A stretch of 30,047 nt of DNA from contig JBHIDR010000006.1 of the NCBI GenBank assembly GCA_046760225.1, positions 1 to 30,047 on the forward strand, read 5' to 3'. The notes beneath the pieces are model-generated. The model saw only the letters and a program-made list of their open reading frames with translations, searched no databases and was not told where the DNA came from. Made by a program: the position numbers and the translations under genes. This document shows, piece by piece, positions 6,013 through 28,787 of this stretch (the stretch's first letter is position 1; the number at the start of each line of letters is the position of its first letter). The stretch comes from Candidatus Aenigmatarchaeota archaeon (GTDB lineage: Archaea > Aenigmatarchaeota > Aenigmatarchaeia > Aenigmatarchaeales > JACQIB01).

Positions 6013-6429
6013 ATGGAAATTGATTATGAAAAACTTGTCAAAGAAGCTATCAAGGCACTGGACAGTTTCTATGGCGGGGACCCGAAATCCAAATACATAT
6101 ATGCTTCAGCTGTGCTGACAGACAAAGGTAATATTTACACTGCAAGCAACTATGTTTCTGATACAACTACATTAACGTTGCATGCAGAGCAGGTAGCGCT
6201 TGCACATGCTGCAGCACATAAGGATGCGAGAATAGTGGCAATAGTTTCTGTAGGAAAGGAGGACCCAGAAGGCGAGAAATTATGCCATCCGTGCGGACTG
6301 TGCAAGCAGTTGATATGGGAGAACTCCCTGAAGTCAGGGATTCAGATAAAGGTCATAATGGCCAACCTGAAGGGCAAGTACGTTGCAAAGGACATAAAGG
6401 AACTCGTGCCTTACCCCTGGCCAGAATAA
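6013..6429 (+). CDS. cdd: Cytidine deaminase
   Basis: HAEQVA and PCGLCKQ zinc motifs; ATG 6013 is preferred over the track start at 5986. Confidence 0.8.
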   Translation: MEIDYEKLVKEAIKALDSFYGGDPKSKYIYASAVLTDKGNIYTASNYVSDTTTLTLHAEQVALAHAAAHKDARIVAIVSVGKEDPEGEKLCHPCGLCKQLIWENSLKSGIQIKVIMANLKGKYVAKDIKELVPYPWPE

Positions 6430-6484
6430 GGTTTTATATTCCCACATAGCTTTATATACCACCCTTTAGTAATATATATTAGGG

Positions 6485-6634
6485 ATGAATATGGGTTGTT
6501 CATGTGGCGAGAGCCCTTACAATATGACAAAGAACGCGTCCGTGTATGGACCTGGTGTTAGAGAGAAAAGGCTCTTGGGATATGGAGAAGAGCCCCTGAG
6601 AACACCCAAATATTCAGGAGTTACTTACAGGTGA
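6485..6634 (+). CDS. 49-aa hypothetical micro-protein, probable first cistron of the tRNA-His/hisS unit
   Basis: MNMGCSCGESPYNMTKNASVYGPGVREKRLLGYGEEPLRTPKYSGVTYR*; TATA-like TTTATATA at 6451-6458, about 27 nt upstream. Confidence 0.5.
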   Translation: MNMGCSCGESPYNMTKNASVYGPGVREKRLLGYGEEPLRTPKYSGVTYR

Positions 6635-6646
6635 ATGAGATGAAAG

Positions 6647-6979
6647 GTGAACGAGTTCACAAAGAGAGTGCAGGATTCTGCTAGGTTCACCTCTAAATTA
6701 GACAAAAGAGGAAGAGCACTTGTTTCTGCTGATATAAGGAAATTATTGAGGCTTAGATTTGGCTCTGTGGTTCTTGTTGAGATTGGTAGTTCTAGCTTTA
6801 GTACTAAGATAGATGATAGAGGAAGGTTTTCTGTTCCTACTAGGATAAGGAATGGCCGGGATAGTGTAGTAGTCAACATACGAGCCTGTGGAGCTTGTGA
6901 CGCGGGTGCAAATCCCGCTCCCGGCCCCATTGAAACTTTTAGAAAAAGTTTCATCAAAAACAGGAGGTGTAAAAAATGA
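6647..6979 (+). CDS. Tandem AbrB/SpoVT (MraZ-like) DNA-binding protein whose 3' part contains tRNA-His
   Basis: Two repeats, FTSKLDKRGRALVSADIRKLL and FSTKIDDRGRFSVPTRIR, resembling the D-x-x-G-R-x-x-x-P-x-x-x-R AbrB/MraZ pattern. GTG start at 6647 or 6668. Confidence 0.65.
   Translation: MNEFTKRVQDSARFTSKLDKRGRALVSADIRKLLRLRFGSVVLVEIGSSSFSTKIDDRGRFSVPTRIRNGRDSVVVNIRACGACDAGANPAPGPIETFRKSFIKNRRCKK
6854..6929 (+). tRNA. tRNA-His(GTG), intronless, with encoded G-1 and CCA
   Basis: G-1, acceptor GCCGGGA/TCCCGGC, C73, CCA; anticodon arm CGAGC-CTGTGGA-GCTTG; T arm GCGGG-TGCAAAT-CCCGC. Confidence 0.95.
6931..6960. repeat. Perfect 10-bp hairpin plus TCAAAAA tail directly after tRNA-His
   Basis: TGAAACTTTT-AGA-AAAAGTTTCA-TCAAAAA; resembles tRNA-Arg intron 4. 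Confidence 0.6.
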
Positions 6980-7123
6980 GTGGTGAAGAAGTTCACATAT
7001 GAGGAGGACTGGGAACTGAAGGAAATGCAAAAGGACCTGAGAAACGGAGAAATAACAAAAGAGCAATATGAAGTGTTTCTCATTTTAACAGGGAGATATA
7101 AAATATATGAAGGCAAAATATAA
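6980..7123 (+). CDS. 47-aa micro-protein, SHOCT-like
   Basis: AGGAGGTG RBS at 6962-6969, GTG start; MVKKFTYEEDWELKEMQKDLRNGEITKEQYEVFLILTGRYKIYEGKI* (LxxGEITxEQY pattern). Confidence 0.55.
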   Translation: MVKKFTYEEDWELKEMQKDLRNGEITKEQYEVFLILTGRYKIYEGKI

Positions 7124-7132
7124 GGTGATAAC

Positions 7133-8416
7133 ATGAAGTTCCAGAAGCCGAAAGGCACAAGAGACCTGATGCCAGAGGACATGGCAAAGAGGAGGAAGTA
7201 CTTTGAGGCAGTCAGGAAGGTATTGATAAGGTACGGCTATGGAGAGATAATGACACCTGCGTTCGAGACCCTTGCGCTCTTGGAGGCAAAGGGGAGCATA
7301 GGACAGGAATGCGTAAAGGATGTTTTCAGGATATGGGACAAGGGAAAAGAGAAGCTCGGTTATGGGCTGATATTCGATCCCACGACACCAATAGCAAGGA
7401 TTGTTGCAAATGACACAAGCTTGCAGAAGCCAATGAGATGGTACTATATCAGGCCAATGTGGAGGTATGAGGAAACAAGGCCAGGCAGGTACAGGGAATT
7501 CTGGCAGGCAGGTGTTGAACTAATAGGAAGTGACAGTCCTCTGGCTGATGCAGAGATACTTGCAATAACCTATGACTGCATGAAGGCAATGGGGATAACT
7601 GACTTTACTCTTCGGGTGAATTCAAGAAAAATAATGGAATCACTTGCAAAGATAGCAGGCATACCTGAAGAAAAAAGAACAGATGCTTTCAGAATAATTG
7701 ACAAGCTTGACAAGATTGGTGAGAAGGAAGTCAGGGGCGAACTGGAAAGGTTTGAAATACCCAAGGAGGCAATAGACAGTTTTATACGTTATGTGAAAAT
7801 GGGAAAGGAAGACATCAAAAAGGAACTGAAGGACTACAAGGAAGCACTGGAGGACCTTGAAGAAATAGAGCAGGTCCTTGAATATGCAAAGAAGATGGGT
7901 GTTGACAATGCCCGGCTTGACCTGAGCATAATAAGAGGTATAGATTATTATACTGGTTTTATTTTCGAGACATTTGTCAAGGGTTATGAAAAGCTCGGGA
8001 GTGTTGCTTCTGGAGGAAGGTATGACTCACTAATAGAAATATATGGCGGAAAGCCAACTCCTGCAACAGGAGTTGGCATTGGTATTGACAGGATGATGGA
8101 GATATTCAAGGAGAAAGTTCCTTATTCACCATTAGTCTATGTTGCAAATGCAAAGGAAGAGACAAAGGACGATGCAATAAGGATTGCACAGATGCTGAGG
8201 AAGGAGATATCAGCTGAATTTGATGTTCTGGGAAAGAAATTGAAAAAACAGTTCGAGTATGTCAATACAAAGGAAATTCCATATTGCGTGATTGTGGGTC
8301 CTGATGAAATAAAAGAAAATTCTGTTGTTGTAAGGGACATGAAGAGCGGGAAGGAAGAAAAAATTGAAGTAAAAAAGCTAAAAGATTTCTTTTTACAACT
8401 AAAGAAGAGAAAGTAA
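7133..8416 (+). CDS. hisS: Histidyl-tRNA synthetase
   Basis: PKGTRD, WRYEETRPGRYREFWQAGVE, RGIDYYTG, SGGRYDSL and anticodon-binding domain. Confidence 0.97.
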   Translation: MKFQKPKGTRDLMPEDMAKRRKYFEAVRKVLIRYGYGEIMTPAFETLALLEAKGSIGQECVKDVFRIWDKGKEKLGYGLIFDPTTPIARIVANDTSLQKPMRWYYIRPMWRYEETRPGRYREFWQAGVELIGSDSPLADAEILAITYDCMKAMGITDFTLRVNSRKIMESLAKIAGIPEEKRTDAFRIIDKLDKIGEKEVRGELERFEIPKEAIDSFIRYVKMGKEDIKKELKDYKEALEDLEEIEQVLEYAKKMGVDNARLDLSIIRGIDYYTGFIFETFVKGYEKLGSVASGGRYDSLIEIYGGKPTPATGVGIGIDRMMEIFKEKVPYSPLVYVANAKEETKDDAIRIAQMLRKEISAEFDVLGKKLKKQFEYVNTKEIPYCVIVGPDEIKENSVVVRDMKSGKEEKIEVKKLKDFFLQLKKRK

Positions 8417-25716: not shown

Positions 25717-26319
25717 ATGAGCCTTATTGAGAGCATGCTGGAATGGAGCAGGCTGGCGCTGCTGCCGCTTGGAGAAGCAGGCCTGTTTGTGGTTGCGTTC
25801 ACTGAATCATCCTTCTCACCAATACCTGTGGAGCTGCTTCTGATACCAATGGCACTGGCAAAGCCAGAGCTTGCGCTTTGGTTCGCCTTTATCGCGACCT
25901 TTGCATCTGTTGCAGGGGCTGTTCTTGGGCATTGGATAGGCCTGAAAGGAGGCAGACCACTTCTAAGGAAACTGGTTTCTGACCACAAGGTAAACAGGGC
26001 AGAGCATTACTTCAATAAGTATGGCTCAATGGCTGTTTTCATAGGCGCTTTCACACCAATACCCTACAAGATATTCACAATAACAGCAGGCATGCTCAAA
26101 TTCAGGCTGTACAAGACAATAATAGCTTCAATAGCAGGCAGGACACCAAGGTTCTTTGCAGAGGCAATAGTTATAATGCTCTGGGGAGAGGCAATAGTGG
26201 CCTTCCTTTCAGAATATTTCGAGATAGTCACGCTCGGGCTTGGTGCAGCTGTCATAGGAGCCTATATTATATACAAGAAATTAAAGAAAAGCAGGCCTCT
26301 TGCTCATAAGAGGCGGTAG
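25717..26319 (+). CDS. DedA/YqaA (VTT) membrane protein
   Basis: AFTESSFSPIPVELLLIPM, FTPIPYKIFTITAG, GRTPRF. Confidence 0.9.
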   Translation: MSLIESMLEWSRLALLPLGEAGLFVVAFTESSFSPIPVELLLIPMALAKPELALWFAFIATFASVAGAVLGHWIGLKGGRPLLRKLVSDHKVNRAEHYFNKYGSMAVFIGAFTPIPYKIFTITAGMLKFRLYKTIIASIAGRTPRFFAEAIVIMLWGEAIVAFLSEYFEIVTLGLGAAVIGAYIIYKKLKKSRPLAHKRR

Positions 26320-28149
26320 CGGGAGCGGCTTGAACGGCTTTCCTTTGCTCCTTTCTTTAACATAGTTGACTACTTCTTTCGATAACATATTCTTTACTTC
26401 TCCGTTCTCCCTAAACCTGACAGCCAGTTTACCTGAGTCCTTTTCCTTCTTTCCCACAACAATTATCAAAGGAACCCATTCCTTTTCTGCGTCCCTCACT
26501 TTCTTCTGCACGCTCTCTGCTCTGTCATCTATGTCAATCCGTATGTCCTGTGCTGATATCTCCTTTGCGATGTCTTTACAATAGTCAATGAAGTCATCGT
26601 TCAAGGGGCAGAGGCGCACCTGTATCGGGCTCAGCCATAGCGGCAGCATAGGGTTCTTCATCATTGCAGCCTTCTCCAGTATAGCATACATGCACCTCTC
26701 TATTGCACCTGATGGGGAGCAATGCAGTATCAACGGGTATTTCCTCTTATTGTTCTCTGCAGTATACATTACCTTGTACCTCTCTGCATTCTCATGGTCT
26801 ATTTGCACTGTTGACAGGGCACTTGCCTTGTTCAGGCTGTCAACAAAATTGAACTCGAACTTTGGGTCAAAGTACGCGAAGCGCTTGCTCCATATCTCTA
26901 TAAGTAAAGGAGAATTGACCTTTTGCGCCAGTCTTTGGGCCATCTTCTGGTTGTCCTTCTGCTTCCAGAGGTCCTTTGAGAACCTTACAGCTGTCTCATA
27001 TTCTCCTGGCTTGAAACCCAGATCTTCCATAAGACCCATGCAAAATTCGAACTGGTTTTCGAACTCTTCATTTGCCTGCTTCAAATCCTTACATAGTGTA
27101 TGCATATCTGGCATTGTGAAGGCCCGAAGCCTTCTGAGTCCTGAAAGCTCACCGGGCTTTTCCAACCTAAAGGAATACCTTGTCAGTTCGTACATCTTCA
27201 GAGGAAGGTTCCTGTATGATATAGTCATTCCGTGCTTCATCAGGAACTGACCAAAGCATGCAGAGAAGCGCAAAAAGAACCTCTTCTTGAAGGACTCCAC
27301 AACATACTGGCGTGCTGGAAAGCGGTGCAGATAGCTCTTTAGTGCAGGATGCTCGTAGTCATACATTATCGGGGTCTCAACCTCCATTGCGCCGTATTTG
27401 ACTGTCTTCTGAGTGACCCATTCCTCAAGCAGCGACTTTATCAGCCTTCCCTTGGGAAAGAAGCGAAGGTTCCCTGGATCGCTGCCGCTCTCGTGGTCAA
27501 CAAGCTCGAGCGCCCGCATATATTTCACATGGGGAGGCATCTTTTCAGCTGCTCTCTTTTTTTCTGACTCATATGAATAGAACTTCTTGAGATTATCAAA
27601 GCCCTTGAAGTCAAACTCCTTTGCAGGGACAATCTTTCCGTCAGGCGCCATTATGAACCATTCAGACTTTATCTTTTCCTCGTCCTTCAGGGCACCGGAT
27701 ATCTCTTCTTCTGCCTTTGCAACACCTGGAATGCTTACGATTTCCCTGCTGAGCTCTGACAGAGGATGACCCTTGACAGATATGCTAAATGCCTTGTACC
27801 ATCCAAAGGGAGCATGTTCTACTTTGTAATTATCTTTCTTCAGAGCCTTCTCTATTCCAAAGAGAACCTTCATCGCTGCATCTGATGAAGAAGGCTCGTT
27901 TGTTAGATGGACATATGGATAGAGCACTATGTTCTTTGTCTTTACTTCTTCAGCTATCTTCTTTACTTCTTCAGCAGTGTTCTGTATTGTCAGAACAACA
28001 GCTGATTCGTCTCGCTTCTCAACTGCTGAGAAGACCACCAGGCACTCCTTGAAGGACAGCTTCTTCTTCTCTACCTTCTCTGCATCCTTTATGGCCTTCT
28101 TTTTTGGCTCTATCTCGAGCGAGTTGCTGTGCATGGTTATTATTTTCAT
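26281..28149 (-). CDS. thrS: Threonyl-tRNA synthetase, archaeal type with N-terminal editing domain
   Basis: LYPYVHL, APFGWYKAFSISVKGHPLSELSR, LRFSACFGQF, RLRAFTMPDMH, ILHCSPSGAIER. Confidence 0.97.
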   Translation of the reverse strand: MKIITMHSNSLEIEPKKKAIKDAEKVEKKKLSFKECLVVFSAVEKRDESAVVLTIQNTAEEVKKIAEEVKTKNIVLYPYVHLTNEPSSSDAAMKVLFGIEKALKKDNYKVEHAPFGWYKAFSISVKGHPLSELSREIVSIPGVAKAEEEISGALKDEEKIKSEWFIMAPDGKIVPAKEFDFKGFDNLKKFYSYESEKKRAAEKMPPHVKYMRALELVDHESGSDPGNLRFFPKGRLIKSLLEEWVTQKTVKYGAMEVETPIMYDYEHPALKSYLHRFPARQYVVESFKKRFFLRFSACFGQFLMKHGMTISYRNLPLKMYELTRYSFRLEKPGELSGLRRLRAFTMPDMHTLCKDLKQANEEFENQFEFCMGLMEDLGFKPGEYETAVRFSKDLWKQKDNQKMAQRLAQKVNSPLLIEIWSKRFAYFDPKFEFNFVDSLNKASALSTVQIDHENAERYKVMYTAENNKRKYPLILHCSPSGAIERCMYAILEKAAMMKNPMLPLWLSPIQVRLCPLNDDFIDYCKDIAKEISAQDIRIDIDDRAESVQKKVRDAEKEWVPLIIVVGKKEKDSGKLAVRFRENGEVKNMLSKEVVNYVKERSKGKPFKPLPLPPLMSKRPAFL

Positions 28150-28196
28150 ATAAACACCTTGTTCACAGTGGAATATAAGTTTTATTCATATATTTT

Positions 28197-28322
28197 TCAA
28201 ATCAGTACTCTATTCTCCAGATATTCCACTGCCTGTTCTGGGTCACCATCTCCGTATTTCTTCACAAAGTCTTCTGGTACATACCATATCTGCTCTGCCC
28301 CAATCTCTGCAAATCCTTTCAT
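28197..28322 (-). CDS. 41-aa hypothetical micro-protein
   Basis: AGGAGGTG RBS; ATGA overlap with the upstream ORF stop; MKGFAEIGAEQIWYVPEDFVKKYGDGDPEQAVEYLENRVLI*. Confidence 0.6.
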   Translation of the reverse strand: MKGFAEIGAEQIWYVPEDFVKKYGDGDPEQAVEYLENRVLI

Positions 28323-28663
28323 CTTTTACACCTCCTTGATTTTTTGGAGCCCTGAGAGGGACTTGAACCCCCAGCCTGCTGCTTACAAGGCAGCTGCTCT
28401 GCCATTGAGCTATCAGGGCACAATAATTCGATAGCGCTAGGTCTTCCTCTACCATTTGAAATCTTGATAGGGACACCACACGAATTGCCTTTCAACCGCG
28501 CATATGCATATCGAGAGAATGACAGCTTCCTCAAATTTGGGCATCTTTCTAAAACAAGTTTTAAAAGCCTCTTGCTTACAAACTTCCTGAAGTGCACGCA
28601 AGAAACATCAGGTGAAAGTTTTGATATATCAGCATAGCTAGAAACAATTAGTCCGCTTATCAC
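28319..28663 (-). CDS. DUF1699-like protein whose 3' part contains tRNA-Thr
   Basis: IVSSYADISKLSPDVSCVHFRKFVSKRLLKLVLERCPNLRKLSFS resembles DUF1699 (VVSS..I..L....VH.....CP....I), recalled rather than searched; GGTGA RBS before the GTG. Confidence 0.55.
   Translation of the reverse strand: MISGLIVSSYADISKLSPDVSCVHFRKFVSKRLLKLVLERCPNLRKLSFSRYAYARLKGNSCGVPIKISNGRGRPSAIELLCPDSSMAEQLPCKQQAGGSSPSQGSKKSRRCKR
28345..28419 (-). tRNA. tRNA-Thr(TGT), intronless, with encoded CCA
   Basis: GCCCTGATAGCTCAATGGCAGAGCAGCTGCCTTGTAAGCAGCAGGCTGGGGGTTCAAGTCCCTCTCAGGGCTCCA folds into a 75-nt cloverleaf. Confidence 0.96.
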
Positions 28664-28787
28664 TCTGTCCGTAATTCACCTTTCACCTTCAACACCTATC
28701 TAACTATTTATTTGCAACCTTTTTAAAAGGGGCAGAAATGTCACAAAAATTAACCTTAAAAAAGTCTGTTGAACAAACTATACTCAT

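Follow-up and report, generated by a model that had tools for sequence, protein, structure and literature searches.

In bacteria, release factor 2 (RF2, gene prfB) is autoregulated through a +1 frameshift, and in yeast the Ty1 sequence CUU-AGG-C gives a +1 frameshift at a 'hungry codon'. The leader-peptide attenuators hisL, trpL and pheM and the T-box leaders are likewise bacterial; tRNA punctuation is known from mitochondria, tRNA-like 3'-end processing from MALAT1/mascRNA, and the Escherichia coli thrS operator is a tRNA-like mRNA element bound by its own synthetase. To our knowledge, the sensing of amino-acid or charged-tRNA supply at the synthetase genes of archaea is largely unknown, with no T-boxes and no established attenuators. 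Here, we analyzed a stretch of 30,047 nucleotides (nt) from Candidatus Aenigmatarchaeota archaeon (GenBank assembly GCA_046760225.1, contig JBHIDR010000006.1; hereafter, the window), the source genome of which (G000) comprises 0.85 Mb and is 83% complete. In the window, a complete tRNA-His(GUG) gene lies within, and in frame with, an AbrB-like open reading frame (ORF) upstream of the gene for histidyl-tRNA synthetase (HisRS).

The leader of this locus has the constituents of a site of the prfB/Ty1 type: a short zero-frame ORF, an internal Shine-Dalgarno (SD)-like element few nucleotides ahead of the shift site, a slippery P-site codon ending in UU, a slow A-site codon, and a product in the +1 frame. 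In contrast to prfB and Ty1, the slow codon is a sense codon for the amino acid of the synthetase encoded in the same operon (His, Thr, Trp or Asn), the setting is archaeal, the +1 frame subsequently crosses a tRNA gene, and the shift is predicted from the sequence. As in the attenuators and T-boxes, a cis element before amino-acid or synthetase genes would read the supply of the charged cognate tRNA. However, there is one cognate codon and no identified terminator/antiterminator pair, in contrast to hisL, trpL and pheM, and a leader-peptide transcription attenuator was rejected on these points (one His codon, no terminator identified). In contrast to the T-box, there is no T-box fold (the Rfam match is to tRNA alone), and the tRNA is encoded in cis, not bound in trans. 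The ORF abuts the tRNA with no spacer, as in mitochondrial punctuation and MALAT1/mascRNA, and the ends of the mRNA would be set by RNase P and RNase Z. Unlike in mitochondria, the last codon (AAT) is complete with no partial stop, the frame does not end at the tRNA but crosses it and has its stop at the next gene, and a stand-alone gene exists in addition to this tRNA copy; punctuation of the mitochondrial type was rejected, there being no incomplete stop before G-1. Like thrS, the locus has a tRNA-shaped element in the operon mRNA of the cognate synthetase; here, in contrast, the element is a whole cloverleaf with the acceptor end and CCA, placed within an ORF and hundreds of nucleotides farther upstream, to which the synthetase may bind.

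The nested tRNA-His gene and the ORF that crosses it

The AbrB-like ORF (Table 1) is free of stops through a complete tRNA-His gene on the same strand, as an earlier note on this DNA, made from the letters alone, had read; both repeat strings of the protein given there were recovered exactly. ARAGORN placed tRNA-His(GTG) at 6855-6929, and the cloverleaf with its GUG anticodon matched the Rfam tRNA model at 62.4 bits (gathering score, 29). G-1 (base 6854) is the first base of ORF codon 70, C73 is base 6926, and the encoded CCA ends at 6929.

For comparison, 42 genomes of the order were sampled, and a search of the class (371 genomes) retrieved 15 loci from other orders. The AbrB ORF abuts tRNA-His in 11/42 genomes of the order, and in G025 a racemase ORF (PF01177) abuts it in place of the AbrB ORF. 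Among the 15 loci of other orders, seven have the same arrangement, one is an unrelated stand-alone tRNA-His, and seven are without tRNA-His (two of these adjoin tRNA-Asn). All of the abutting ORFs (19/19) enter the tRNA in the frame starting at G-1, and none (0/19) stops before it; thus, the random frames or earlier stops that would speak against the nesting were not encountered at the homologous loci. The remaining frames 1 and 2 have stops inside the tRNA in 18/19 and 17/19 loci, respectively. The distance from the GR motif to the tRNA, counted in the 17 AbrB loci with tail sequences, is always a whole number of codons and takes 11 values (9, 19, 21, 23, 25, 27, 28, 31, 34, 36 and 48 codons). 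The last codon before G-1 is complete (AAT, TAT or ATT; neither T nor TA is left over), and both nested and stand-alone copies have T immediately before G-1. Note that the G-1 frame is also open in 12 of the 15 stand-alone tRNA-His genes, that is, open by nature, and therefore one such ORF alone is not beyond chance; unlike this, the conservation of the frame at the 19 abutting loci is beyond chance.

At two loci a racemase is involved: in G295 (L114) the AbrB ORF, tRNA-His and an Asp/Glu-type racemase form one 336-codon open frame, and in G025 (L033) an Asp/Glu-type racemase before the tRNA reads through it, the genome's own AbrB gene ending at an ordinary stop. G004 (L032, contig C6) has a 141-codon frame homologous to AbrB in which Rfam detects no tRNA; its tail resembles a decayed remnant of the tRNA-coded stretch. 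A related-locus search with a four-row alignment gave five loci, one of which was an unrelated Planctomycetaceae match. In a full-text literature search, covered mostly at the level of abstracts, and in a preprint (10.64898/2026.05.13.725050), neither the nesting of a tRNA in an ORF nor cognate-codon frameshift leaders in archaea were described; within this coverage, no prior description was found of a complete, structurally conserved tRNA inside a protein frame across a whole class.

The nested tRNA-His is an extra paralogue beside a stand-alone gene. Of the 12 nested-tRNA genomes of the order, 11 also have a canonical tRNA-His, in many cases interrupted by an intron, and no such gene was found in G006 (an assembly of 160 contigs); several further BLAST candidates turned out to be tRNA-Asp or tRNA-Gly. 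A TATA box (TTTATATT/TTTAAA) is located approximately 25-30 nt upstream of each of the 15 stand-alone tRNA-His genes in the order and is missing from the nested copies, in agreement with what the earlier note had seen in the window. A promoter remnant before the tRNA (6818-6840, 78% like 6423-6445) was considered and dropped because the same residues are encoded in G001 with GC-rich synonyms and no TATA-like stretch. The cloverleaf is retained: pairing in the 19 nested copies amounts to 99.0% of 418 stem cells, compensatory double changes occur in 16/22 stem pairs, and both G-1:C73 and the GUG anticodon are invariant (19/19). The universal elbow nucleotides (G18G19 in the D-loop; U54-U55-C56 in the T-loop) are not present in the window copy, the D-loop of which is AGTAGTCA. 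The D-loop GG is missing in 9/19 nested copies and the T-loop is not TTC in 7/19, leaving 10/19 fully canonical; neither change occurs in the 26 stand-alone copies compared (0/26), all of which have a canonical elbow. The tRNA tree gave no resolution: no nested copy pairs with the stand-alone copy of its own genome, and nested copies account for five of the seven longest end branches. The stand-alone tRNA-His of G000 itself (contig C1, approximately 51777-51889, minus strand; L126) has a good TATA box and an intron of approximately 36 nt at a non-canonical position in the T-loop, and was missed by ARAGORN even with the intron option.

The first 69 residues of the ORF constitute a two-repeat domain of the AbrB/PhS018 type. 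Single-sequence likeness was weak: NCBIfam TIGR01439 was matched with E 5e-4 and 19.7 bits (cut-off, 28.3), below the curated threshold, Pfam MraZ at 16.8 bits (cut-off, 23), likewise below that of the curated family, and a single-sequence protein search gave no match at E <= 1. A profile of 18 homologues matched 2glw (PhS018; E 1.6e-6), SpoVT (0.001) and AbrB (0.004) in the PDB, and a profile search of protein databases gave 155 matches; the public homologues carry the NCBI/JGI names AbrB, MazE or SpoVT. The AlphaFold2 model (pLDDT 85-94 over residues 11-80; residues 81-110 predicted to be disordered) shows the strand-strand-helix-strand repeat, and its top Foldseek match is 2glw (probability 1.00, E 1.6e-4), with MraZ structures in second rank. 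By the profile, assignment of the ORF to the AbrB/MraZ superfamily (swapped hairpin) is clear, and the identity proposed in the earlier note is borne out by all three approaches (profile, AlphaFold2 and Foldseek). MraZ proper was rejected: the core has 69 amino acids (aa) instead of approximately 150, the context is tRNA and HisRS, not dcw, and TIGR00242 scored 20.6 bits against 98.35. The ORF is like PhS018 of Pyrococcus horikoshii (2glw), AbrB/SpoVT and MraZ in profile, predicted fold and the two tandem repeats with a GR loop, whereas here repeat 2 is truncated, the N-terminus would be set by a frameshift cassette, and the gene continues in frame into a tRNA. For a short-form homologue, the AlphaFold2 monomer had a mean pLDDT of 60 (45-56 in the tRNA-coded part); the low mean is uninformative and as expected because the monomer is half of a dimer. 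The protein is predicted to bind DNA and is probably an autoregulator of the conserved promoter, the sole hint of an operator being the conserved TCCCAC motif of that promoter. Public gene calls (clusters P0001-P0037) are AbrB/MazE/SpoVT proteins that start at the GTG inside the cassette and include the tRNA-coded tail, over which approximately 37 database clusters of 82-100 aa extend.

Leader cassettes with a cognate codon at the His operon and its sister loci

The ORF and the tRNA are parts of one His-specific operon, the genes of which are predicted to be co-transcribed; the operon is conserved across the Aenigmatarchaeia (DPANN), a class of very small symbiotic archaea. HisRS is encoded within approximately 1.5 kb downstream in G000, G001, G010, G012 and G036; different genes follow the tRNA in G002 and G030, with no HisRS in the retrieved stretch. 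In relatives from this order and from others, the sequence TCCCAC...TTTA(T/A)ATA recurs approximately 30 nt ahead of the leader. Two cassettes, marked by a 33-nt direct repeat (6629-6661/6965-6997, 76% identity), each consist of an SD-like site, ATG, GGTGA and GTT-CAC. The shift-site pattern (GGTGA, 4 nt, GTT-CAC; 6646-6660 in the window) is the same in 17/17 loci, and in all 17 loci checked the mini-ORF is in frame -1 with His at the frame junction. An inverted repeat of 11 nt (6625-6635/6686-6696) pairs the leader SD-like site with the first AbrB strand codons in an SD/anti-SD-like manner.

The loci differ in the start codons available to the AbrB frame. In the other orders, ATG or GTG precedes the AbrB core in 0/7 loci and one TTG in 4/7, and TAG stands directly before the shift site in 5/7; in this order, GTG is found at codons 1-4 of the AbrB frame in 10/10 loci checked, the window included. 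Judging from the startless AbrB frames, the TAG before the shift site and a startless ORF at the Trp locus (see below), a frameshift would be needed at loci other than the His locus of the window. In G015 the +1 frame after the tRNA also has TAG before the shift site. Two tandem His cassettes occur in G010 (L029), where the AbrB frame is +2 and would be reached by two consecutive +1 steps, both at cognate codons; the leader of G025 (L033) contains both CTT-TGG and CTT-CAC sites.

The codon at the junction is cognate to the adjacent synthetase at each type of locus: His in 17/17 loci (HisRS), Asn in 5/5 (AbrB paralogues before asparaginyl-tRNA synthetase, AsnRS), Thr in 3/3 (threonyl-tRNA synthetase, ThrRS) and Trp in both cassettes of the Trp locus (tryptophanyl-tRNA synthetase, TrpRS). 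This cognate-codon rule thus extends across the His, Asn, Thr and Trp loci. The Thr locus (26281-28686, minus strand) is a twin of the His locus within the window; along with the extra-copy status of the nested tRNA, the downstream HisRS and the position of the AbrB ORF in the +1 frame of a His leader, it goes beyond the earlier note. Its ATGA overlap leads into a 41-codon ORF and then ThrRS, and ribosomes would have to shift by +1 twice there, both times at a cognate codon. A second tRNA-Thr(UGU) with an intron and a TATA box is located on contig C16 of the genome. Thr-codon leaders are also found in G030 and G031, where the Thr ORF has no tRNA. The Trp locus (L124; contig C2 of G000) consists of a Trp leader, a startless helix-turn-helix (HTH)-like ORF, with no start codon for 28 codons, that crosses tRNA-Trp in frame, a second Trp cassette and TrpRS; a possible gene for the alpha subunit of phenylalanyl-tRNA synthetase (PheRS-alpha) follows. 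The Asn locus (L125; contig C17 of G000) consists of an Asn-codon leader, an AbrB paralogue, an asparagine-synthetase-A-like gene, tRNA-Asn and AsnRS, and the gene upstream of tRNA-Asn stops 9 nt before it. Each type of locus has its own conserved element just upstream of the TATA box, namely TCCCAC at the AbrB-type loci (His and Asn) and TGTGACATTT at the Thr loci; these elements are candidate operators for the locus-specific small proteins.

Other features of the His operon are listed in Table 1. The stretch with the 49-codon ORF is absent from G001 (same genus), in which the TATA box is followed by the SD-like site within approximately 22 nt. The ATGA overlap of stop and start is also found in the tRNA-less G021.

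Table 1. Features of the His and Thr loci in the window (coordinates of the window)
Feature	Position	Strand	Remarks
Nested tRNA-His(GUG)	6854..6929	+	G-1, C73 and CCA encoded; no intron; D-loop without GG; T-loop TGCAAAT
AbrB/PhS018-like ORF, 110 codons, GTG start	6647..6979	+	+1 frame of mini-ORF 1; crosses tRNA; stop TGA 6977-6979
Two-repeat swapped-hairpin core, residues 14-69	6686..6853	+	Repeat 2 shortened in this genome; by profile, AlphaFold2, Foldseek and alignment
Putative promoter element: TCCCAC, short spacer, TATA box 6451-6458	6440..6459	+	Promoter function predicted
49-codon ORF in ~150-nt stretch between promoter and leader	6485..6634	+	From ORF listing; no Pfam/NCBIfam match
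SD-like AGGTGA	6629..6634	+	5 nt before ATG 6640; within 33-nt direct repeat
Leader mini-ORF 1, 14 codons + TAG	6640..6684	+	Single His codon CAC 6658-6660 after internal GGTGA and GTT
Perfect 10-bp hairpin	6931..6953	+	Directly 3' of tRNA; by inverted-repeat search
Second SD-like site AGGAGGTG	6962..6969	+	By sequence reading and repeat search
Mini-ORF 2, 8 codons	6976..7002	+	His codon 6994-6996; ATG overlaps AbrB ORF stop (ATGA)
47-codon ORF, small conserved protein	6980..7123	+	+1 frame of mini-ORF 2; homologous small ORFs before HisRS in G001 and G010
HisRS	7133..8416	+	Pfam tRNA-synt_His 1.9e-58; TIGR00442 392.9 bits (cut-off, 286.75)
Thr locus: leader mini-ORF	28660..28686	-	Thr codon ACA 28668-28666; second CGG-ACT site 28652-28650 in +1 frame
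Thr locus: 114-codon ORF	28319..28663	-	In frame through tRNA-Thr; stop overlaps next ATG (ATGA)
Thr locus: nested tRNA-Thr(UGU)	28345..28419	-	No intron; no TATA box
Thr locus: ThrRS	26281..28149	-	tRNA-Thr_ED 4.2e-45; class II core; anticodon-binding domain

Translation, excision and the competing readings

We propose that a hungry-codon +1 frameshift, or a GTG start, admits ribosomes to the frame that crosses the tRNA, and that translation and excision by RNase P and RNase Z compete on one transcript, a reading to which we give nearly an even chance. A single transcript would begin at the upstream promoter (6440-6459), and ribosomes would initiate at the leader ATG (6640). When charged tRNA-His is scarce, they would pause at GUU-CAC, 4 nt past the internal GGTGA, and slip by +1 into the AbrB frame; the GTG at 6647 may also serve as a start in this order. 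As no stop precedes the tRNA in the AbrB frame, ribosomes in this frame would run into and across the tRNA. Covered by ribosomes, the tRNA would be unable to fold; therefore, the transcript would stay whole, and ribosomes would be delivered to the second cassette and HisRS. On a bare transcript, the tRNA would fold, and RNase P and RNase Z would excise a tRNA-His or tRNA-His-like RNA, severing the operon. The nested tRNA would then be a translation-gated cleavage module that balances tRNA-His against HisRS. That one transcript is either translated or cut had already been suggested in the earlier note and is still the best reading, the transcript itself being predicted. In favor of the proposal are the common frame at all 19 abutting loci, the missing promoter of the nested copies, their extra-copy status and retained cloverleaf, the cognate-codon rule, the frameshift that other loci would need, the end of the ORF at the next cassette, and the RNase P RNA encoded in the genome.

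Several observations weigh against the proposal. Since the G-1 frame is open by nature, its openness itself shows no selection, and the difference between nested (19/19) and stand-alone (12/15) copies is not significant. Past the tRNA, frame 0 shows no excess of openness, the first stop being reached at a median of 31 nt, compared with 59 and 3 nt in the control frames. The independent junction events number approximately 4, with a chance probability of approximately 0.05. The tRNA-less homologues of G034, G016, G021 and G024 function with an ordinary stop, and the stop 9 nt before tRNA-Asn means that transit is not universal. Given the GTG at codons 1-4, ordinary initiation could replace frameshifting in the window. 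The leader holds one cognate codon, not a run. A search of sequencing runs over 6200-7600 found the locus in DNA runs only and in no RNA run.

In a rival explanation, the tRNA is merely placed in the operon as passive punctuation. RNase P would cut fast, and therefore the stop-less AbrB message would always end at 6853; the protein would end at Asn-69 with the help of archaeal no-stop rescue, and the 41 later codons, which read open because the tRNA frame is open by nature, would never be made. Besides the open G-1 frame of the stand-alone genes and the lack of excess openness in the spacer, this agrees with the RNase P RNA encoded in the genome (113 bits), with the end of the tRNA-less homologues soon after the domain, and with the T that precedes G-1 in both kinds of copies. 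We nevertheless consider passive punctuation rather unlikely: despite the 11 tail lengths at 17 AbrB loci, none of the 19 lineages has gained a stop before the tRNA, none has drifted into either of the frames in which the ORF would terminate within the D-arm, the position of the ORF stop at the following start codon is kept whether or not a tRNA is present, and the retention of an extra tRNA copy is left without a reason.

A reason for that retention would be offered if the tRNA mimic were an operator, with HisRS in excess of free tRNA-His binding the mRNA of its own operon and blocking ribosome passage or coupling, an autoregulation of the thrS kind. The presence of an extra copy in 11/12 genomes, the invariant G-1:C73 and GUG anticodon, the proximity of HisRS in five genomes, the long end branches of nested copies in the tRNA tree, and the loss in a subset of the elbow, which is used by the ribosome and the processing enzymes, are all consistent with such an operator. 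However, 10/19 nested copies are fully canonical, and genes other than HisRS follow the tRNA in the retrieved stretches of G002 and G030. An operator of this kind would be compatible with the competition between translation and excision proposed above, not exclusive of it; as an explanation in its own right, it appears unlikely.

The earlier note had also proposed that the acceptor strand and the D-arm encode the last strand of AbrB repeat 2, so that the full-length read-through protein is functional. For this genome only, the AlphaFold2 model (18 homologues) bears this part out: the tRNA-coded residues 73-80 are in a strand (block pLDDT 85), the model matches 2glw, and the genome is without the stretch of approximately 12 residues that gives the strand in the other five two-repeat homologues. 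The dual-coded fold is, however, not conserved in the homologues, which makes a functional read-through protein very doubtful. G001, G002, G006, G010 and G012 encode the strand before the tRNA, the seven loci of other orders finish a single domain before it, and the tRNA-less homologues end after the third strand, without the last one. The low pLDDT of the tRNA-coded part in the short-form model and the predicted disorder of residues 81-110 also argue against such a protein, and the tRNA-coded columns, conserved for RNA reasons, can mislead a structure predictor.

The sequence itself was examined for reliability. In a search of sequencing runs, DNA of the window was also found in hydrothermal-vent metagenomes. 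For 6400-6961, contigs were available from four DNA runs: those of X1 and X2 match the window exactly, X4 has two differences (6523 and 6557), both upstream of ORF 6647..6979, and X3 has one short contig (6612-6857) with two differences. The contigs of the four runs break directly after the nested tRNA-His, at the hairpin. Stop usage is standard in the genome (TGA 147, TAA 140 and TAG 79 in 366 long ORFs). Thus, a misassembly, a pseudogene, a TGA-recoding host or an integrated mobile element delivering the tRNA, to which the contig breaks and the foreign-looking genes common to G002 and G030 after the tRNA might point, are effectively refuted by the recovery of the same stretch from four runs, the normal use of all three stops (rejecting TGA recoding), the housekeeping flanks syntenic across families (M20 peptidase, GNAT and HisRS; rejecting a mobile element) and the class-wide conservation of the arrangement.

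Significance for the Aenigmatarchaeia

One consequence concerns annotation: dozens of public 'AbrB family' proteins end in 25-40 residues of translated tRNA, and outside this order ribosomes probably enter the ORF by a frameshift, a start invisible to gene callers. As a tentative extension of the proposed competition between translation and excision, which we regard as possible and somewhat less probable than that competition itself, the loci may represent a general control system of the Aenigmatarchaeia for at least His, Thr, Trp and Asn. Through a +1 shift of frame at one cognate codon, the ribosome would sense how much charged tRNA is available, and ribosome cover of an embedded extra copy of the cognate tRNA would decide between synthetase and tRNA. 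In this design, a frameshift site with one cognate codon would recur for each of four amino acids. The overlap of a tRNA with a protein frame bears on the competition between translation and RNA processing on one molecule. If this is true, a structural RNA gene doubles as a translated sequence and as a translation-gated self-cleavage module, a kind of control not described before and an archaeal counterpart of the T-box and of attenuation.

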